DNA from: a virus | Lineage: Duplodnaviria; Heunggongvirae; Uroviricota; Caudoviricetes | DNA length: 26,524 bases | IMG/VR virus record: IMGVR_UViG_2541047721_000003 | Reading direction: 5' to 3' (one strand) | In this document: positions 4,073-21,587 of the stretch, piece after piece | Numbering within the stretch: the stretch's first letter is position 1 | How the letters are laid out: every line of letters begins with the position of its first letter | The notes under the pieces: generated by a model | Databases searched by the model: none | Seen by the model: the letters and a program-made list of their open reading frames with translations, nothing else | What the model was told of the DNA's origin: nothing | Translations under genes and position numbers: made by a program

Positions 4073-5950
4073 TTATGCTGCGGGATTATTGATTTCCAGC
4101 ACCAGGCTGCCGATATCGACGCCATACGTTGCATTTTTGGTAATATCCGTCAGCGTCAGTGCATTCAGCCCCAGTGTCAGACTGTCTTTTATGACCTGGA
4201 ATGCCGGGCCAACCAGTCCATTCAGTTTCGGAGTAACCGTGGCACTGCCGGCGGTGAACACCAGCTCCAGCGTCTGCCAGTCGTTACTGTAATTCCCGAA
4301 CTCGCCCAACTTTGTGTTTCCGGCTTTCTTGTGATGCATCAGATTCAGTTTGCCGTCTGTGGTCTGGGTGAAGAACGACATCAGGAACGGGTTACCAGTC
4401 CCGGTCATCGCCACGACGTCAGGTAACGCTACATCGGTATACAGATAAATTCCCAGACCGAACTGGTTGTTGGTCAGTGCGCCTGACAGTCGAAACTTAC
4501 AGCTCAGTCTGCCACCCCGTGTCAGCAGGGAGACTGCGTCATCCACCGGGCGCGTCAGGGACCAGGCTTTATTGCTCTGCTTGGCGATCTTAAATACACC
4601 ATCTGACAACTGAATTCCGCCATTCTTAATGCTCCAGCCCTGCGCAGCAGCATCTCCGGCTGTCGGCAACAGGGAGATTGTGCGTACGGATGCATCTTCA
4701 GACGGCCCCGATGGCGTGTCGCCGCCGGGCGAGGGTTTGATTTCCGGTGCCTTACCACTGATGAAGGCTGAGGTGCGCCCGGCTGCGTTCAGAATAGCGG
4801 TTGCCATACGATCCGGAATAATGCTCCTGCGCGCCCATGAACTGAAATGTGTCGGGCGGTTTGATGATACCCAATTACCATTACTACGGGATTGCGCGCC
4901 GTAATAACCTGCATCAGCAATATCCGGGTCTTCTGCCGGTAAGTTGGTGGGCGTGTTGTTGCCGTTACCGTCGGTCATGAACGGCACAAAGAAAACGTTG
5001 TCGCTCTCCCTGTTTTTGTACGCGCCGTAGACGGAGTCATACTGTGTGCCGTATGTGTTTTTCCAGTAATACGTCGTGTCGCCACAAATCCACGGTACAA
5101 CTGCAGCACTGCCGCCATGGCACTGCGCGTTAAATCCGGAAAGGTCAGTACGGAACTGCTTCAGCATGGCCGTGAACAGGTCCGGTTGCTGTGCGTAGGT
5201 GGCAGCGCTCATGTCAAATTCGCCCTGCATCCAGCACACCGCCAGCAACACATTTTTCGGGTTCTTCTGTAATGCCGCTTTGGTGCGTGCGATCAGGTCC
5301 TGATATAACGGTTTACCCACACCCCAGCGTGCCGAATCCTGGCTGGCCCCCGTGTCCGCACTGAATGTCCCCTCCGCGCCCTGGGTGAATGCCGAACCAC
5401 CACGACAGCATGGTACCAGCAGGATCCCCGCGTTATTCGGGATATACGGAAGCAGTTTTTTGGCAATATGTAAGCCCTGGCCGACACAGCCGTACTGCCC
5501 TTTGCTCAGGTCTGCCTTCGGATGATTCAGTGCGCTCATATCCTGAACATCATGCAGGCAGTGGTCTGCCGGAATGATGTCGTTAAATGCGCATGCTTTA
5601 CCACCGGGAGTCACTGTGTTGCGACGGGCCAGTTGCTTAATGCGTGGGTGGGGCGCATCGTAAGAATCCGGCAGCGGCATTCCCTCACCATATGACATGG
5701 CATTGGATTGACCAGCAAGTACCACCACGTAATACCACTCCGGCACGCTGCCGTGCTGGGGGGAATCAGGTGAGATGTCTGTAGTGCCATCGGCCACCAT
5801 TGCCTGCATTAGATACCACGGGGTGCCGGGTTCGTAGGCAACCCGCGTCTCCCCCTGAAGATGCCACCCTTTCGCAAGATGTTCATTCACCTTTTGAGTC
5901 AGTTCAGCCTGTGTCATGGCTGTAATCAGTGCAAAGTTCTTACTGGTCAT
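4073..5950 (-). CDS. Cargo esterase: N-terminal DUF1737-like domain + SASA/SGNH-type carbohydrate O-acetylesterase domain + C-terminal putative carbohydrate-binding domain (NanS-p-like)
   Basis: 625 aa. ATG at 5950 overlaps the stop of the o-spanin gene (ATGA). GQSN motif (VVVLAGQSNAMSYGEG) characteristic of the SASA esterase family. About 60-aa N-terminal module like the DUF1737 of prophage NanS-p proteins. Placed between lysC and R, where P2 has no gene. Confidence 0.7.
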   Translation of the reverse strand: MTSKNFALITAMTQAELTQKVNEHLAKGWHLQGETRVAYEPGTPWYLMQAMVADGTTDISPDSPQHGSVPEWYYVVVLAGQSNAMSYGEGMPLPDSYDAPHPRIKQLARRNTVTPGGKACAFNDIIPADHCLHDVQDMSALNHPKADLSKGQYGCVGQGLHIAKKLLPYIPNNAGILLVPCCRGGSAFTQGAEGTFSADTGASQDSARWGVGKPLYQDLIARTKAALQKNPKNVLLAVCWMQGEFDMSAATYAQQPDLFTAMLKQFRTDLSGFNAQCHGGSAAVVPWICGDTTYYWKNTYGTQYDSVYGAYKNRESDNVFFVPFMTDGNGNNTPTNLPAEDPDIADAGYYGAQSRSNGNWVSSNRPTHFSSWARRSIIPDRMATAILNAAGRTSAFISGKAPEIKPSPGGDTPSGPSEDASVRTISLLPTAGDAAAQGWSIKNGGIQLSDGVFKIAKQSNKAWSLTRPVDDAVSLLTRGGRLSCKFRLSGALTNNQFGLGIYLYTDVALPDVVAMTGTGNPFLMSFFTQTTDGKLNLMHHKKAGNTKLGEFGNYSNDWQTLELVFTAGSATVTPKLNGLVGPAFQVIKDSLTLGLNALTLTDITKNATYGVDIGSLVLEINNPAA

Positions 5951-14807: not shown

Positions 14808-15146
14808 CTATAGCTTTGATGCAGGCTGGGCTAGGTCTCCTTTGATGCCAGTGTTTACAACCTGACAAGCCTCTTTGAGTACCCAGTCAACAGCGTCTTT
14901 CCATGCTCCGGTTTCGGCTGGCGGATTCTCACGCTTTACCAGTTCATAGAATCGTACTGCTCTAACCAGTCCATCTGACGGTTTTGCCTGTAGTGCAGCC
15001 TGAGCTATGCGGTATGCCTGGAGCATACGGGCGTCGTTGATATCCATTCCGAACGGAATTTCTGATGATTGTGATTCTGCATCTTCAAGCCTGGCAATTT
15101 CTTTACGTAAAAAGTATTTCAACTCTTGTTTTTGTTTTCTGTTCAT
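14808..15146 (-). CDS. Hypothetical protein, 112 aa (co-operonic with the ClpX-ZBD-like gene)
   Basis: ATG at 15146 overlaps the stop of the upstream gene (ATGA). Predicted largely helical and charged. No recognisable motif. Confidence 0.55.
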
Positions 15147-15475
15147 GCGTTTTTTCCCTTTTTGTCTGTCACTTCTCTCCTGATAATTTCATTGCACAAA
15201 TCCACGCACTCATTGCAGATGCAAACAGACGGTCCGGCAATCACCTTTGTGACTTCGTACTGAGATTTATTGCAGAAGCTGCAATAAATCGTCTCCTCGC
15301 CTGAAGTCCATGTTTTGCTGGTTTCGCCAGACATCAGTTGTTTGAGGTCTTTTTCACGACGAAGAACTATCTGGCCACATTCAGCTATTTTTTGGATGTT
15401 GACATTTTCTTCTTTCGCCAGCGCTTCCATCCGCTCAATCAGTCGCTGCGCTTTTTCTCTGTCAATGTGTTGCAT
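15143..15475 (-). CDS. Small protein with C-terminal ClpX-type C4 zinc-binding domain (zf-C4_ClpX-like), N-terminal coiled-coil-like region
   Basis: 110 aa, ATG at 15475 with AAGGGGGA RBS. Segment [35 protein letters not shown] closely parallels the E. coli ClpX N-terminal zinc-binding domain ([32 protein letters not shown], from memory), including the CxxC...CxxC spacing. Confidence 0.7.
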
Positions 15476-15508
15476 TGTGTCCCCCTTGTTTATGTTCCCG
15501 GATTAAAG

Positions 15509-15532
15509 TCATCAGGGCGGATGCGCCCTGAT
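15509..15532. other. Hairpin CATCAGGGCG-GATG-CGCCCTGATG between parR and the ClpX-ZBD-like gene
   Basis: 10-bp perfect inverted repeat read directly. A third copy of CGCCCTGAT lies at 15553..15561. Confidence 0.4.
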
Positions 15533-15538
15533 GTTGTG

Positions 15539-15850
15539 TTATTCGGGAAATAACGCCCTGATATTTCCGGCCATCCGACTGGTTATCTGTGAGGTTGGTA
15601 CTGGCTGTGACGCGGGGCGTTCTGTCCTGGTTTGTGTCACTGATAACGCCTCATCGTCAGCCCATGCAGCCAGTCGGTAAGCCTCTGCCGGATTCATTTT
15701 CAGAAGTGCCAGCCCGGCCAGAAAAGCCACACGTTGGCCGCTTTTGCGGGCTTCTGGTGTAAGGCTGTCCAGCCAGGTGCATGCTTCGCCTTCGTTCTTG
15801 ACGGCGGCGGGCTTCAGATAGAAACTTATCCGTCTGGTTGGTGTCGTCAT
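15539..15850 (-). CDS. parR: ParR-like centromere-binding adaptor (RHH)
   Basis: 103 aa from ATG 15850 (AAGGAG RBS), 4 nt after the parM stop. RRISFYLKP...AFLAGLAL...ALFPE parallels plasmid R1 ParR (RTIAFKLNP...ALTAGLAL...SLFPKE, from memory). Confidence 0.68.
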   Translation of the reverse strand: MTTPTRRISFYLKPAAVKNEGEACTWLDSLTPEARKSGQRVAFLAGLALLKMNPAEAYRLAAWADDEALSVTQTRTERPASQPVPTSQITSRMAGNIRALFPE

Positions 15851-15854
15851 TGGT

Positions 15855-16814
15855 TTACTCCTTGTCCATTGCGTACAGCCCATTAACCAGAGCAAACTGT
15901 GGCACCCCGTCCGCGATGAAAGTCGCATTAACTCCGCAGGCTTCGCGGATAGCGGGTGCCACAATCTCCGCCCCGCCACCGACAACCATCACCCGCCCGT
16001 AACCCGAAAAACCCGCCAGCGCGCGGATCACTCGTTGTTTCAGTGTTTCTTCCTTTTCACGAATAACCGCCATCAGGCTGTCGTAATGCGCGTCATTGTG
16101 GATGTGCTGGCGCAGCCAGGCTTCATCATGGCGATGTTCGATAATGGTATTGGCGATGTGGTGACTGGTGCGCATACCGTTAGTGGCCATCACCGACAGT
16201 ACGGCATCGGCCATCAGAGAAACGCCTACGTGTGGATCGCAAAACACCTGGCTGATACCTGCCAGTTGCCCCTGAACCTTTGCCACATCCAGCGTGGTTC
16301 CGCCCAAATCCACAATCAGCAGGGATTCAAACGGACTCATGTCAGCCAGTGCCTTAAAGCCAGCCGGAATGGATTCAGGCATAACCCGCACGTTACGGAT
16401 AGTGAATGCTTCGCCGTTCTGGTACTCCACCGGGCGCATAACGTTCGCTTTTTTGCGGTTGATGTTGGCCATGTCCGGCTGTGCGTTTGTGTCGAAATAC
16501 TCGCTCAGTGGCAGGGTGACAACCACATCCACCTCCTGTGGCGTGATGCCTGATTTGACCAGCGCGTGATGAATGGCAATTACATTCACATCGCTGTACT
16601 GGTATTGCGTGTCGGTCGTCTGGACAAATCGAACGCTGACCGGATCAAAACCATAGCGCACGCCATCAAGCATGTAGTTTGCGGGCTGCATGCCACCGAA
16701 CGGCGCAGACCATTCCGATTTGAAGCTGTTCGGGCTGATGGCGTTGCGGCGTTCGCCGTTCTCAGTCCATGCCAGCTTGATGTTGGTGGAGCCGTCGTCG
16801 ATACAAATTTTCAT
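15855..16814 (-). CDS. parM: ParM/StbA-like actin-type segregation ATPase
   Basis: 319 aa. MKICIDDGSTNIKLAW N-terminus and segments ISPNSFK, YSDVNV..HHAL, VMPE.IPAG, LLI.DLGGTTLD, GVSL, V.GGGAE, LVNG closely parallel R1 ParM (about 320 aa, from memory). AAGGA RBS. Confidence 0.85.
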   Translation of the reverse strand: MKICIDDGSTNIKLAWTENGERRNAISPNSFKSEWSAPFGGMQPANYMLDGVRYGFDPVSVRFVQTTDTQYQYSDVNVIAIHHALVKSGITPQEVDVVVTLPLSEYFDTNAQPDMANINRKKANVMRPVEYQNGEAFTIRNVRVMPESIPAGFKALADMSPFESLLIVDLGGTTLDVAKVQGQLAGISQVFCDPHVGVSLMADAVLSVMATNGMRTSHHIANTIIEHRHDEAWLRQHIHNDAHYDSLMAVIREKEETLKQRVIRALAGFSGYGRVMVVGGGAEIVAPAIREACGVNATFIADGVPQFALVNGLYAMDKE

Positions 16815-16845
16815 GTCGATTTTCCTTATGTTGATTAATTAATCG

Positions 16846-16956
16846 TTTACGGGGTTTTTAAATCCCGTTTTTGCCTGTTTTATGCGCGCTTCATATATCG
16901 CGGCGCGTTTTTTGCTCATTTACGGGTTTTGTGAATCCCGTTTCTGTCTGTTTTTT
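16846..16956. repeat. parC-like region: two about 38-bp direct repeats flanking a putative promoter
   Basis: TTTACGGGGTTTTTAAATCCCGTTTTTGCCTGTTTTAT (16846..16883) and TTTACGGGTTTTGTGAATCCCGTTTCTGTCTGTTTTTT (16919..16956), each with an ACGGG...CCCGT inverted sub-element. Lies immediately upstream of parM and overlaps the last codons of A. Confidence 0.5.
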
Positions 16957-19713
16957 GTTTCCACTGGTCAGGCTACCCCGCAGCAGGTCTGCTTTGCGGC
17001 GGGCGCGTTCAGTGGTTTCACTGATTCTCTGTGCGTGCTCTGCGTCACGGATGGCGCGCAGCATGTCAGAAAGCACGGTAACGGGGGTTTTCATGGTGTT
17101 CTGGTCCTGCTGAAGTGTGGATGCCAGGCGTGCGGCGGCTTCGGGGTCTGATGCCCCCAGCTGTTCCAGATAGCCGGCGACCGGGTTATGGCGGATCTCC
17201 GTGCTGCTTACGCCGTGATTACGGCTCAGGCGCTGCCAGAGCTGCGTGATTCGGCTGTCCGGGCGGGTATCCGGTTTGCGTACAATTTCAAATCCCTGCG
17301 GTGCAATGATGCTGCCGTCAACGTACAGGCTGCCGCCCCGTAACAGGTGCTGCATCTGCTGTTCACCGATATGCAGGCCGAGAGATTCGGCAGACTCCCG
17401 CCATTCTTTAGCGAGTAATTCGTGGTTATCAGGCAAAGGCCGCTGCTGTTTGCGGCTCTGTGTCCAGCTCTGCATTTCATCACTGCTGTTTTTTGCCTGT
17501 TTATCATGAAGCGAACGCATCAGCGCCCGGCGTTCGTGCCGTTTCAGTGAGCGCATCCATTCGTTCACTTCAACGCCATCAGGGAGCTGCGGCCACGGTG
17601 CTGGCCGTTCTTCCGGCTGTTCTGCCCCGTTGTTGTTCGTTTCCTGTACACGGGGACAGTTATTGCCACGAGTCCAAGGGGCGGCAGGGCCGCCCTGAAG
17701 GTCAAAACCATTTTCGCGGGCGCTGTCTTCCGTTTCCGGTTTACGTCTTACCAGTTTCCAGTTATCCGGATGCGTGCACACACGGGAGGATTCCCCGATG
17801 AGTGGTGACCAGATCCCGTAAATCTGTACGCTCTGTTCGCCGTAATCATTCAGCTCATCTGCGAGGTCGTAGGCGGTGCGAATCAGGTAGTCTTTGCGTG
17901 GAACAAGTACGCCGCCCTGTTTTTCAATGTAGGTGGCAAAACACCCGGCATCGGCGGCAGCGAGTACCGCATCCATTGCGTCATCTTTCAGTCGTTGCGG
18001 GCCTTCCGGGTTGCGTGCCATCTGGCTGGCAAGGCGGCGCAGTTCACGCCACACCTGACGGGAGGGGATGCCAAAGAACTGGAACTGGCGGACCCGATGA
18101 AGGCGCGCCCAGCCGATGGCGCGCTCCACACTCTCGGCCATTGATTTTCCGGTTTCGTGGTCAACGCGTGGCTTGCCCGTTTTCGGGTCGATGCCATCCA
18201 CGGCGCGGCTGTCCAGGTTCTTTCCGATGTAGGTCGCGATATAGCTGGTTGGTGTGCCTTTTGAGCCGTCGACGTACTCCGCTTTAAAACGCGGAGTTAT
18301 GTCATCGCCCAGCTCGTGGCGGTCTTCCTGAATGGCAATATCGCAGACGTGGGACACGATGGTTTCAATCTCGTCCGGATGTGCAAAGACCATCATATGC
18401 CAGTGCACAGTGCCGTCATGGTGAGGCTCCACCGTGCGGATGCCATACCAGCGAAGACCGTCGCGGTTCAGTTTTTTGCGGACCGCCGCAAAAAAAGTGT
18501 TAACCAGGTAATCGCTGGAGTCGCGCATGGTGGCCCCGTTCCATTTGGGATTCGGATGACCGTTCTCCGTTGTTGCGTGGTATTTTGACGGGCAGGTAAC
18601 GGTCAGAAACACCGCTCTGTCGCTACGGGCTTCGGCCAGAAGTTCCAGTCCCTTCATGGTGGCCATCATTTCTGCCTTACGGTGAACCGGGTTACTTACT
18701 CCCGCGTAATACACTGTCTCGAGATCAATCGTGAACCCGTCTTCATTTTCCAGCATGAAACTTTTCAGGAAATCGCGTGTTTTCTCGCGCTGTGCGCGAA
18801 ACTCGCTTAACGCGTCCTGGCTCAGATAGGGCGATGTTTTTCTGGAAACCAGACAGGCGGCGCGGAGTTGTTCTTCCCGCCACTCGCAACGTAACAGCCA
18901 CAGTTTGCGTTTCCACCATTCCGCACAGGTCAGGCGAAGGATTGCGCCCGGCAGCAGTTCTGTGTCCGGTTCGTTCCTCCGGTCTTTGTCTGTTGTCAGT
19001 GCGTCATAATGCGGAGGCATGGCGTGCAAGTGTAACGCCATGCGGGCTAGCATCTGATACGCCTTCAGCGTTACATCCATGGTCAGCTCGCCATCAGTCG
19101 CGCCAAAACCATCGCAGAGTTTTTCGAAGGTGCTGCTGAACATCGCCGCCGTCATGGTGGCCAGCGTCTGTATCTGGTGTTTGTTGAGTTGCGGCAGGTA
19201 AAGCAAATCGTCCAGGCGTTCGCGTCCGGCAAGGGACCGATAACCCGGTGTCAGCCAACGGCTGTCGGTGCGGTCCAGACGTACGAATATTTTGCGCAGG
19301 GTTCCGCGCGCGTAGCGTTCAGCCTGCCAGCTCTTTTTGCCTTTCTGGCGATCGGCTTCCTGTTTTTTGCGCAGGAAGGAGAGGTGGCGAATAAGCGGAT
19401 CGCGCAGATAGGACGGCAGCAGGCGCAGCGAGGCCATGGCTTCATCCACCGCGCCGCGTGCCTGTTTTCTGGCGTCTCCTGCCAGTGTGATGGTTTTGTC
19501 CTGTTTTTCCTGTGCGTCCAGGTTTTTATTAATCAGGTTGCCCAGCGGCGTTGCGGAGAACGCCGCATCAGCCATTTCCTGGCGGCGCTCGTTCTCTGCC
19601 CGGTAGGCATCCAGCCAGGAGGAAAGCGCGGATTCAGGTGCGGGGATCCCCGTTCCTTCACGCCCCACTGCGTGGCGCGGTTGTTGCCAGTCCCTGATGT
19701 ACTCTGCCGTCAT
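16891..19713 (-). CDS. A: Replication initiation endonuclease gpA (rolling-circle, HUH superfamily)
   Basis: 940 aa. HUH-type motif VHWHMMVF and paired catalytic tyrosines Y-x3-Y (SYIATYIGK, about residues 491/495 by manual count), as in the P2 A protein. Longer than P2 gpA (about 761 aa). Confidence 0.85.
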   Translation of the reverse strand: MTAEYIRDWQQPRHAVGREGTGIPAPESALSSWLDAYRAENERRQEMADAAFSATPLGNLINKNLDAQEKQDKTITLAGDARKQARGAVDEAMASLRLLPSYLRDPLIRHLSFLRKKQEADRQKGKKSWQAERYARGTLRKIFVRLDRTDSRWLTPGYRSLAGRERLDDLLYLPQLNKHQIQTLATMTAAMFSSTFEKLCDGFGATDGELTMDVTLKAYQMLARMALHLHAMPPHYDALTTDKDRRNEPDTELLPGAILRLTCAEWWKRKLWLLRCEWREEQLRAACLVSRKTSPYLSQDALSEFRAQREKTRDFLKSFMLENEDGFTIDLETVYYAGVSNPVHRKAEMMATMKGLELLAEARSDRAVFLTVTCPSKYHATTENGHPNPKWNGATMRDSSDYLVNTFFAAVRKKLNRDGLRWYGIRTVEPHHDGTVHWHMMVFAHPDEIETIVSHVCDIAIQEDRHELGDDITPRFKAEYVDGSKGTPTSYIATYIGKNLDSRAVDGIDPKTGKPRVDHETGKSMAESVERAIGWARLHRVRQFQFFGIPSRQVWRELRRLASQMARNPEGPQRLKDDAMDAVLAAADAGCFATYIEKQGGVLVPRKDYLIRTAYDLADELNDYGEQSVQIYGIWSPLIGESSRVCTHPDNWKLVRRKPETEDSARENGFDLQGGPAAPWTRGNNCPRVQETNNNGAEQPEERPAPWPQLPDGVEVNEWMRSLKRHERRALMRSLHDKQAKNSSDEMQSWTQSRKQQRPLPDNHELLAKEWRESAESLGLHIGEQQMQHLLRGGSLYVDGSIIAPQGFEIVRKPDTRPDSRITQLWQRLSRNHGVSSTEIRHNPVAGYLEQLGASDPEAAARLASTLQQDQNTMKTPVTVLSDMLRAIRDAEHAQRISETTERARRKADLLRGSLTSGNKKQTETGFTKPVNEQKTRRDI

Positions 19714-19719
19714 AGTGAT

Positions 19720-20085
19720 TTACTTCGTCATGCCATTCAGGGTGTCGCGGCAGACTGTAGCCAGCCGCTGAATTTCCAGCACGGTGTCTTCTGTGTCGGC
19801 ATGGCGATGTGTGATGCGGATGCTGTCGGCAATCACATCGACGATTGCAGAGGATGGGCGCTGGTAAATGCCAATAACGGACGGGGTGCCACCTTCAATG
19901 CGGTAAAGCCTGTAATTTCCCTCGTGGCTGTCAATCATGTAGCGACCATCAATAACAATCTTTCCGTCAGCGAGCTGCGGTACAGGCAGGGATTTCAGGT
20001 ACATGTCATAACGATCACGCACGCGAGCGGCAAGATCACGTTCTGTGTTGAGCAGGTATTCAAGAAAGTCGTTGGCGAGAATCAT
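19720..20085 (-). CDS. Hypothetical early protein, 121 aa
   Basis: ATG start; stop 7 nt upstream of the A start. No recognisable motif. Confidence 0.5.
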   Translation of the reverse strand: MILANDFLEYLLNTERDLAARVRDRYDMYLKSLPVPQLADGKIVIDGRYMIDSHEGNYRLYRIEGGTPSVIGIYQRPSSAIVDVIADSIRITHRHADTEDTVLEIQRLATVCRDTLNGMTK

Positions 20086-20157
20086 TGCGGCAATCCTCTT
20101 GTTACAGATGTGCGAAGGCCTCCCGCCGCAAGGTGCAGGAAAGGCCCGGAACAGGAA

Positions 20158-20388
20158 TTAATGGAGTTTGTTTTGCTGCTGGAAGAGTTGTTGCAGCTCG
20201 CGCAGATCATCCGCCAGATAGCTGAAAACAGAGGCGGAATAGATGTTCGATAGCGCGTGGCTGCGCTCATGCAGCATATTGATGTGCATGATTTGCGCGA
20301 CGCGTGATGCGCGGAAAAGTCTACGGTTGATTTCAGTCTGGATGTGACGACGCTCCGCGATAGCGCGGCGCTGTTTGCGGTTTGCCAT
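20158..20388 (-). CDS. Hypothetical early protein, 76 aa (basic N-terminus)
   Basis: ATG at 20388 with AAGGGG RBS. N-terminal MANRKQRRAIAERR suggests nucleic-acid binding. Unverified. Confidence 0.45.
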   Translation of the reverse strand: MANRKQRRAIAERRHIQTEINRRLFRASRVAQIMHINMLHERSHALSNIYSASVFSYLADDLRELQQLFQQQNKLH

Positions 20389-20565
20389 GGTGTGGCCCCT
20401 TGTGTAGTAAGTTGTGAAAACTCACCATCCAGAGCTGCGAAACTGTGGGTGGCGAGACGTACGAGGTTCGCAGTACCGGCTACACAAGAACCCGGCCCGA
20501 CCGAAGTCGGCCCCGTACGCCCCGCCATAATTCTGACGCGAAAAAAACGTGGCAATACAGTACGC

Positions 20566-20588
20566 ACAAAAAAACCGCTGGCGCGGTT
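20566..20588 (-). terminator. Intrinsic terminator (minus strand)
   Basis: Stem AACCGC/GCGGTT with a 4-nt loop, followed on the minus strand by a run of 8 T (A-run 20567..20574 on plus). Confidence 0.55.
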
Positions 20589-20725
20589 GTGCGCTTGTGT
20601 AGTCAGCAGGCTGCGAAACCCGGCACCCGTTTTATGAGGTGCAGCGAGAATGTAACCTGACTGATTGCGGCATGGCAAGCGGTTTTTTTGTGAGAACGGC
20701 ATACTAAAAAAATCCTGATACTGCT

Positions 20726-20756: not shown

Positions 20757-21587
20757 TTACTTCACCGGAACAAACGGAACAGCGGTGTTGCTGGTCATGT
20801 ATTGCGGCAGCGTGCCGTTCCATTTGTTGATTGCTTCCAGCTCCATAACGCCGGGATTCTGGCGCAGAGCTTCACCGCGTAAACGAATGGCGTCGGCTTC
20901 AGCCTGGGCTTTTGTGCGAATGGCATCGGCTTGTCCGGCAGCTTCTGCGCGCAGCATGTTGGCTTCAGCTTCGCGTTGCTTGACTTCCTGTTCACGTTGC
21001 AGGGTTTTCTGGTTTGCCGTGACTTTGGCATTAATGCTGTCGATAACGGTTGGTGGGTATTCCGGCTTACCCACATAAGAGAGGCTCATTACCTGAATGC
21101 CGATAGGTGTCATTTCTGCCTGAATGTCTTTAAGTGCTGAATCCAGCAGTTCAGACTTGCCACCGTCGATAAATTTATCGGTGGTCATTTTGCTGGCCAG
21201 TCGGTTGAGTGCGTCGGCGATCTTCTGGCGCAGGTCAGTGTCGGTAATGTCGTCCACGCCTTTGCGGTAGGTCTGAAACACCGTGGTAACTTTGGATGGA
21301 TCAACTTTGTAGGCCACGCCGATGTGATAGCCGATGGTTGTGCCGTCACTCATCTGGAAGTTGAACGGCTCATCGTAAGTCTTCATTTGTTTGAAAGTCG
21401 GGAAGATGTAAACCTCTGTATTCCAGCCTGTCCAGTAGCGGCCAACGCCAACTACTTCGCCGACGCCTTTGTCGTCGCCCAGTTTGTTGACTTTGATTCC
21501 CACATTACCTGGCTCAACGCGATCGCAACCAACCAGCAGGATGGCGGCAAAAAGCGGGAGAATCTGAAAGAGTTTGAATTTCTTCAT
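20757..21587 (-). CDS. SPFH/band-7 (stomatin/prohibitin/HflKC-like) lipoprotein
   Basis: 276 aa. N-terminal signal with lipobox (ILLVGC). Central region consistent with an SPFH domain. C-terminal Ala/Glu/Gln/Arg-rich coiled coil (QREQEVKQREAEANMLRAEAAGQADAIRTKAQAEADAIRLRGEA) typical of HflK/HflC/YqiK-type proteins. ATG overlaps the stop of the upstream small gene. Confidence 0.78.
   Translation of the reverse strand: MKKFKLFQILPLFAAILLVGCDRVEPGNVGIKVNKLGDDKGVGEVVGVGRYWTGWNTEVYIFPTFKQMKTYDEPFNFQMSDGTTIGYHIGVAYKVDPSKVTTVFQTYRKGVDDITDTDLRQKIADALNRLASKMTTDKFIDGGKSELLDSALKDIQAEMTPIGIQVMSLSYVGKPEYPPTVIDSINAKVTANQKTLQREQEVKQREAEANMLRAEAAGQADAIRTKAQAEADAIRLRGEALRQNPGVMELEAINKWNGTLPQYMTSNTAVPFVPVK

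Follow-up and report, generated by a model that had tools for sequence, protein, structure and literature searches.

The locus analysed here, a parM-parR gene pair with parC-like repeats in a prophage, belongs to a group of DNA-moving systems built from an actin-like filament former, a DNA-binding adaptor and a repeated DNA site. The parMRC (stbAB) system of R1/NR1, borne on a plasmid, has the order parC-parM-parR and a centromere of two groups of five direct 11-bp iterons about 94 nt apart. The srpMRC system of the SXT/R391 integrative and conjugative elements (ICEs) stabilises the transient excised, replicating form of the element as well as a single-copy test plasmid; it is strictly conserved in its family, is co-expressed with int and mobilisation functions, and its adaptor binds upstream of the motor gene (PMC4489591). 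SrpM and SrpR are only distantly related to R1 ParMRC, SrpR having no homology to known ParRs (PMC4489591). In prophage CGP3 of Corynebacterium glutamicum, the AlpAC/alpS system is induced early and is required for normal copy number and efficient replication of the phage DNA, and its authors propose transport of circular phage DNA rather than segregation to daughter cells (PMC4446434). The AlpAC adaptor binds repeats upstream of its own operon (PMC4446434, PMC5539076). The window studied, the whole 26,524-nt stretch of IMG/VR record IMGVR_UViG_2541047721_000003, carries parR, parM and two parC-like blocks between positions 15539 and 16957. With moderate confidence we read this cassette as a functional type II (ParMRC-type) DNA-moving module that is core to the P88/Xuanwuvirus branch and would serve the replicating, non-integrated phage circles.

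Profile searches place the cassette, by sequence, in the R1/StbAB-type ParMRC family, in agreement with the ParM/ParR pair proposed in a preliminary description of this DNA. parM (15855..16814, minus strand) encodes an actin-fold partition ATPase of 319 residues. It matches StbA_N (7e-82) and the carboxyl-terminal family ParM_C (1.1e-68) in Pfam, both far above the gathering scores, PHROG 691 'partition protein' (4e-90) and, in a phmmer search, the solved R1 ParM 1mwk from end to end (1.7e-92, residues 2-316). The phage protein is 47% identical to R1-type plasmid ParM (structures 1mwk, 4a62), and all nucleotide-binding and hydrolysis motifs, IDDGSTNIKL, MPESIPAG, DLGGTTLD and GGGAE, are identical or conservatively changed; the phosphate-binding and adenosine elements DDGSTNIK, PESIPAG, DLGGTTLD and GGGAE are conserved. 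Purifying selection on parM is strong and tighter than on the neighbouring replication gene gpA: the ratio of non-synonymous to synonymous substitution rates (dN/dS) is 0.04-0.15 for parM and 0.11-0.32 for gpA, and in comparison with a Hafnia copy parM has a dN of 0.027 for a dS of 0.61 while the dN of gpA is 0.31.

Among plasmid ParMs, even the nearest reach no more than about 52% identity to that of the window. As a single query in a contig search ParM retrieves only three near-identical loci, and its diversity was gathered from a search for homologous proteins followed by inspection of their contigs. Four closer homologues outside the P88 group were examined, from Plesiomonas (63%), a second Hafnia type (62%), Serratia (59%) and Enterobacter (54%). 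All four lie with parR between gpA and the portal gene of P2-like prophages whose gpA, portal and capsid proteins are only 28-55% identical to those of the window. Because the closest relatives sit in P2-like prophages with such diverged proteins, the sequences indicate a ParM clade that is old, phage-associated and better conserved than the structural proteins, and not a recent acquisition from a known plasmid.

parR (15539..15850, minus strand) starts with an ATG at 15848-15850, 4 nt beyond the TAA stop codon of parM (15855-15857), and has an AAGGAG ribosome-binding site 7 nt upstream of this ATG, confirming the tight linkage noted in the preliminary description. A longer, TTG-started version of the frame (to 15985) overlaps parM and is not needed. 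The product is a predicted centromere-binding adaptor of 103 residues that matches Pfam PF10784 (Plasmid_stab_B, 4.4e-24) and PHROG 2515 (6e-58). It is homologous to R1-type ParR, of the same Pfam family, in the N-terminal domain, with 34% identity over the first 56 residues; the R1-type protein has 116 residues, and the phage one is without the middle segment of about 25-30 residues of the longer ParRs. A profile of 29 homologues gives as best match in the PDB the ribbon-helix-helix protein ParR/StbB of pB171 (2jd3, E=0.0057, residues 8-73), again of the same Pfam family, with weak sequence similarity. The AlphaFold2 model of the monomer has a predicted local distance difference test score (pLDDT) of 56 and leaves the N-terminal strand unmodelled, an obligate ribbon-helix-helix dimer being poorly modelled as a monomer; Foldseek searches with this low-confidence model return nothing below E=2, only noise.

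In alignments ParR has three parts. Residues 1-63 make up a conserved N-terminal domain whose RRISFYLKP strand is invariant, residues from about 64 to 95 are a hypervariable linker, and the C-terminal tail, NI(R/Q)ALFPE, is again conserved, N-I-(R/Q)-x-L-F-P being invariant or nearly so across alleles that are only about 50% identical overall. The tail is common to other phage ParRs and to the ParR of IncI/K plasmids. The N-terminal domain is constrained (dN/dS 0.14-0.33) and the linker drifts (dN/dS near 1 where measurable); in the tail dN/dS is not measurable and non-synonymous changes are few (0-3.5 per comparison). In the predicted organisation a freely drifting linker joins two conserved parts, an N-terminus for DNA binding and a tail for ParM binding. 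parR alleles are mosaic: in comparisons with the EC958, O157 and O104 copies the dS of parM is about 0.05 and that of parR exceeds 1, and megablast identity is interrupted at query positions 167 and 258, both within parR. These breaks suggest that the variable cargo region between gpA and the portal gene has a recombination boundary in the parR linker, parR alleles travelling with the cargo.

The cassette resides in an integrative P88-like, P2-like temperate prophage (Xuanwuvirus, Peduoviridae), whose integrative and P2-like nature the preliminary description had recognised. Pfam identifies a P2-type gene set (Phage_GPA 2e-128, Phage_cap_P2 7e-117, GPO scaffold, portal and terminase) and a tyrosine integrase with Int_N and Phage_integrase domains. 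The gene order is that of Escherichia phage P88 (NC_026014), where Cox-type and C-type regulators are also annotated, and the region 15400-17100 has 98.1% nucleotide identity to that phage. Every gene between 13717 and 21587 is on the minus strand. Directly upstream of parM, on the same strand, is the gene of the gpA-type rolling-circle replication endonuclease (16891..19713, 940 residues), leaving an intergenic space of only 76 nt. The C-terminal 140 or so residues of gpA (from about residue 800; window 16891-17320) are specific to the P88 lineage, other phage gpA proteins aligning only up to about residue 796 with at most 42% identity, and it is this extension that bears the upstream centromere-like block.

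The two blocks are direct repeats of 42 nt, 83% identical and 73 nt apart from start to start, and are the single outstanding direct repeat in 15400-17100. The preliminary description had reported the pair correctly and put its length at about 38 bp. Block A (16916..16957, minus strand) lies within the last 22 codons of the gpA-like gene and contains the palindrome ACGGGATTCACAAAACCCGT. Block B (16843..16884, minus strand) contains the palindrome ACGGGATTTAAAAACCCCGT, which in most relatives is perfect, ACGGGATTT-AA-AAATCCCGT. In the 31-nt core between them (16885..16915, minus strand) gpA ends with its stop codon (16891-16893), and there is a GATATAT with weak likeness to a -10 element. In the orientation of the genes, each block starts with an A-rich stretch (CAAAAAACAGACAGAA or CATAAAACAGGCAAAA), continues with the palindrome and ends with TAAAYGA. 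The parM leader that follows (16815..16842, minus strand) has the ribosome-binding site AAGGAAA and a conserved ATTAATCAACATAAGG stretch, and is similar in the Plesiomonas prophage. Block B encodes in frame KQAKTGFKNPVND and a stop, an echo of the gpA C-terminus KKQTETGFTKPVNEQ. The window has no further copy of the palindrome beyond these two, and Rfam has no match within the cassette.

Each block holds a CGGGATT..AA.CCC palindrome conserved from E. coli to Hafnia, and eight blocks give the consensus CA.A.AACA..C..AA.CGGGATT....AA.CCC..AA..GA. The 73-nt spacing is identical in the copies of E. coli, E. albertii, Salmonella, Cronobacter and Hafnia; kept in this way across genera, the repeat pair is not due to chance. 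Among the E. coli, E. albertii, Salmonella, Cronobacter and 'Vagococcus'-labelled copies the 151 nt preceding parM are free of insertions and deletions, and the Hafnia region differs by one nucleotide, in the leader. Between E. coli and Hafnia identity is 79% in block A and 86% in block B, against 45% in the 31-nt spacer. The Hafnia gpA stop codon falls inside block A and the non-coding part of the block is still conserved, so its conservation is not due to coding constraint. The Plesiomonas prophage has analogous repeats, GCGGGACAACAAAAACCCGAAATAGC and GCGGGACAACACTAACCCACAATGGC, of the form GCGGGACAAC..AACCC, 72 nt apart and with the upstream one in the 3' end of gpA; the Serratia and Enterobacter relatives have instead a large inverted repeat around GGGAAC..AAATAGAAAAAT. 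R1-type and IncI/K-type plasmids likewise have two repeat blocks ahead of parM, with spacings of 94 and 61 nt respectively and made of 10-11-bp iterons. From position, conservation and this analogy, the two palindromes are best read as sites on one face of the helix that would serve ParR as operators or centromere.

A different view of the repeats is that they are the leftover of a duplication of the gene A 3' end, or terminators acting on the antisense strand, the true ParR site being elsewhere or the system decaying. The in-frame echo of the gpA C-terminus in block B is what a duplication would leave, a T-run follows each palindrome on the plus strand and the terminator scan detects both, and two sites are few beside the ten iterons of R1. 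We nevertheless regard this view as quite improbable. As RNA structures the blocks are weak hairpins (z = -0.5 to -2.0, with 8-52 of 200 shuffled sequences folding as well); they are far better conserved than the spacer and their spacing is fixed; block A of Hafnia is partly non-coding and conserved all the same; and the Plesiomonas repeats retain the CGGGA..CCC half-sites without the T-run. Decay of the system is excluded by the dN/dS values, parM and parR being intact and under purifying selection.

The preliminary description had also seen a putative promoter flanked by the repeats. A scan of 15300-17200 detects no sigma-70 consensus promoter, nor is a usable one present upstream of parM in the Hafnia, Plesiomonas, Serratia and Enterobacter relatives; two promoter-scan matches in Serratia and Enterobacter end on the parM start codon itself. 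The promoter that type II systems have embedded in parC, autoregulated by ParR, is likewise not found by this consensus scan, which weak promoters could escape. The terminator scan detects no terminator on the minus (sense) strand between gpA and parM. Since there is neither a terminator after gene A nor a recognisable promoter of their own, parM and parR are likely co-transcribed with gpA as the distal end of the early replication operon, and would be made together with the replication protein. Just downstream of parR, terminator scan and RNA folding both reveal a strong GC-rich hairpin (15510..15533), which folds at -18.4 kcal/mol (z = -4.0) on the minus strand and at -21.5 kcal/mol (z = -5.2) on the plus strand, none of 200 shuffled sequences being as stable. 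It is probably a bidirectional terminator that shuts off parMR from the variable cargo region and from the late genes, which are convergent.

Set beside the described systems, the cassette shares with R1/NR1 the order parC-parM-parR and two repeat blocks upstream of parM, and differs in its residence on an integrating phage. Its centromere-like region comprises two blocks with one 16-20-bp palindrome each in place of the iteron groups of R1. Unlike in R1, the core is without a recognisable promoter and the upstream block overlaps coding sequence. With srpMRC it has in common a ParM-type system in a normally integrated element, the host of srpMRC being an ICE with relaxase- and oriT-driven replication and not a phage. 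AlpAC is likewise described as an actin-like filament former with a DNA-binding adaptor in an integrated prophage; it differs in its Gram-positive host, in its reversed gene order (alpA then alpC) and in the 24 repeats of alpS. The probable co-expression with the early operon would match the timing of both srpMRC and AlpAC, and for this reason we favour the idea that ParMRC pushes replicating P88 circles apart.

The cassette is widespread and chromosomal. It occurs in 1303 of 5426 complete E. coli genomes, including O157:H7, O104:H4 2011C-3493 and ST131 EC958, with 1451 copies in 1304 records and up to three per genome; 1449 of the 1451 copies are on chromosomes. Among phage records, all 14 with a P88-type gpA (at least 80% identity) have parM, and in the collection of 50,697 records the sole other phage with a ParM homologue is Escherichia phage D6 (91 kb), whose StbA-type protein is 48% identical. 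We take D6 to be a P1-like phage-plasmid needing partition for its normal extrachromosomal prophage state. PLSDB (72,556 plasmid records) yields six full matches to the repeat region, all with adjoining phage sequence that is annotated as phage replication endonuclease in five of the six; no real plasmid in these records shares the region. One of the records examined, NZ_CP148288.1 (pZ1323PEC0009-2, from a cat isolate), is entered as a circular 'plasmid' of 34,461 bp and consists of a whole P88-like phage genome. In a human isolate of the same study series (NZ_CP148378.1) this phage is integrated beside flk, the queried 4.7-kb tail region being 100% identical. A ParM 97% identical to that of the window is encoded on a 226-kb contig labelled Vagococcus sp. 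WN89Y (NZ_JBQPOM010000071.1), a Gram-positive genus; the contig is most likely contamination or a mislabelled assembly.

These distributions bear on two other explanations of why an integrating phage would keep a partition cassette. It could maintain P88-like phages as facultative plasmid prophages, low-copy episomes lasting over many generations, a possibility raised by others (PMC9122126). The module is complete, its family otherwise occurs on low-copy plasmids, a whole phage genome is on record as the circular pZ1323PEC0009-2, and the ParM homologue of D6, the only other phage to have one, is annotated as an StbA-type plasmid stability protein. A stable episomal state, which the preliminary description had envisaged among the uses of the cassette, is nonetheless disfavoured because the E. 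coli copies are, but for two, chromosomal, and we judge this explanation rather unlikely. Integrase, Cox and C-type repressor are present, the phage of the lone episome is integrated in a sister isolate, and spontaneously induced cells can also yield a circular contig. P2 replication requires gpA made from the early operon, which the immunity repressor shuts off, so a quiescent replicating plasmid state is without obvious regulatory basis. No plasmid-type replication initiator adjoins the cassette, and the element does not qualify as a phage-plasmid, defined by an autonomous replicon and the absence of an integration module.

The other explanation is a conflict function, in which ParR and parC of the prophage destabilise or silence incoming plasmids or phages with a cross-reacting centromere, by incompatibility or exclusion. 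P2-like phages hold anti-phage cargo in the gpA-portal hotspot (PMC9122126), on whose edge the cassette lies, and divergent parR alleles stand on a near-identical background, as seen from the dS above 1 in parR against about 0.05 in parM. We consider this role highly improbable. All six full PLSDB matches to the repeat region are phage-flanked, leaving no real plasmid as target, and the base-contacting N-terminal strand and the blocks are constant in all alleles, which therefore do not define specificities. Related copies coexist in one E. coli genome, PADLOC gives no match, and the strong constraint on the ParM motor would be left unexplained. Incompatibility with R1/IncFII plasmids in particular, suggested in the preliminary description, is opposed by the absence of the repeat region from the real plasmids of PLSDB, by a ParR only 34% identical over 56 residues to the R1 type and by the unrelated 11-bp iterons of R1.

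We privilege the hypothesis that the cassette moves or segregates replicating, non-integrated phage circles, which is the most likely role, and not stable plasmid maintenance or anti-plasmid incompatibility. ParR dimers would bind both palindrome-bearing 42-nt blocks that straddle the end of gene A; as 73 nt make about seven helical turns, the blocks would face one side of the helix. ParM filaments would have their ends captured by the conserved C-terminal ParR tail, and ATP-driven insertional polymerisation of ParM would push paired phage DNA circles apart. The module would be expressed with gene A from the early operon, which works in the phase of the circular, extrachromosomal, replicating genome that follows infection or induction. 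In this phase the module would separate replicating circles from one another, position them and, should the cell divide ahead of integration or lysis, provide both daughters with copies; maintenance of a stable plasmid prophage would not be among its tasks. P2-type replication generates monomeric circles that are the substrate for packaging. The pay-off that we infer could be more efficient replication and packaging, or it could be a better supply of copies to the two daughters ahead of integration.

Several observations weigh against this hypothesis. The candidate centromere has just two obvious palindromic sites and not the ten direct iterons of R1, and binding of ParR to the blocks is assumed from their position only. 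Within the P88 group no co-variation is seen between ParR allele and block sequence, the RRISFYLKP strand and the CGGGAT/ATCCC half-sites being constant. The lytic cycle takes less than an hour, in which segregation across a division has no obvious need. In E. coli O111:H21 strain 15A (NZ_CP077477.1) the prophage is decayed, with a truncated gpA, host genes (pgsA and tRNA genes) in place of the early region and loss of the early promoter region, and the cassette is intact and 99.9% identical to the window. The O157:H7 copy likewise has intact parM and parR in a disrupted prophage, with an IS3 fragment just past parR. Retention of parMR in such decayed prophages could hint at a host-level or lysogen-level role, and a possible weak promoter missed by the consensus scan would permit expression in the lysogen. 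On expression or function of the O157 copy (CP-933T), the literature searches returned nothing specific.

A stronger proposal, which we put forward only tentatively, is that the ParM clade of P2-like phages is a viral machine dedicated to the positioning of DNA, which is fixed in a deep Peduoviridae branch and exceeds capsid, portal or gpA in conservation. It would separate the monomeric circles generated by gpA in rolling-circle replication and be needed for normal replication, packaging or lysogenisation, and would not be a leftover of plasmid maintenance. Linked to it is the possibility of a real dual lifestyle, integrated or episomal, in some hosts.

Other genes around the cassette deserve mention. 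Directly downstream of parR, a 110-residue protein (15143-15475, minus strand) combines an uncharacterised N-terminal part with a ClpX-type C4 zinc finger (PF06689, 2.9e-16) and has no AAA+ domain. It could mimic or compete with the ClpX N-domain in the recognition of adaptors or substrates. Its P88 counterpart is mis-annotated as 'carboxylate-amine ligase', and PADLOC models give no match for this protein, nor for ParM, ParR or the three proteins encoded downstream. In the early region, an SPFH/Band 7 family protein (20757-21587, minus strand; 4e-31) is also without PADLOC match, its P88 counterpart being annotated as 'lipoprotein' with the note 'serine protease'. Rfam assigns to 20445-20642 (minus strand) a C4 antisense RNA (RF01695, 83 bits) adjoining the isrK Hfq-binding small RNA (RF01394, 65 bits), both within or overlapping an open reading frame (20082-20702) with a weak match to the Ash family, which suggests an antisense-controlled antirepressor module of the P1/P7 type in a P2-like phage. 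Amid the lysis and tail genes, a 625-residue protein (4073-5950, minus strand) has DUF1737, a SASA sialate-O-acetylesterase-like domain and DUF6645, and is similar to the NanS-p type esterases of Stx prophages; its gene is probably cargo.

The cassette is already known, which removes the novelty implied by the preliminary description: it is common, annotated and remarked on in the literature, and actin-type systems of integrative elements have been characterised by experiment (PMC4489591, PMC4446434). RefSeq names ParM and a partition protein in P88 and in more than 1000 E. coli chromosomes. P88-like phages are of the myovirus type. The paper on Citrobacter phage phiSM lists the gene as cargo (PMC6456863). 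It describes phiSM as a siphovirus with a long non-contractile tail (PMC6456863); the deposited genome (OR565851.1) has 97% nucleotide identity to the window cassette and a ParM 98.7% identical, pointing to a P88-like phage, and this discrepancy is unexplained. For about one P2-like phage in four, Rousset et al. (2022) report a 'putative plasmid partitioning system', which they group with the content of the gpA-gpQ hotspot (PMC9122126), whereas here it appears as a fixed lineage component next to the variable region. None of these sources gives a centromere anatomy, a selection analysis or an experiment on the cassette, and no experimental study of it was found in the literature searched. The present analysis adds how the centromere-like blocks are built and conserved, that the upstream one overlaps gpA, that the cassette has no detectable promoter to itself, how strongly selection acts on parM, that parR alleles are mosaic, and that the nearest ParM relatives form a clade of P2-like prophages.

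The interest of the cassette rests on its function alone. About a quarter of complete E. coli genomes hold the module in a prophage, and parM is among the most constrained genes of the phage. A 'plasmid segregation protein ParM' on an E. coli chromosome usually marks the P88-like prophage lineage and not an integrated plasmid. Inducible and able to plate on E. coli laboratory strains (PMC5285337, PMC6456863), P88-like phages would be a convenient system for asking why integrating elements retain partition machines. If the proposal of a dedicated positioning machine were true, the cassette would be an easily studied E. coli counterpart of AlpAC of CGP3. P88-like phages could also reveal whether the replication of phage DNA in Gram-negative hosts is organised by actin-like filaments, as it is by AlpC in Corynebacterium.

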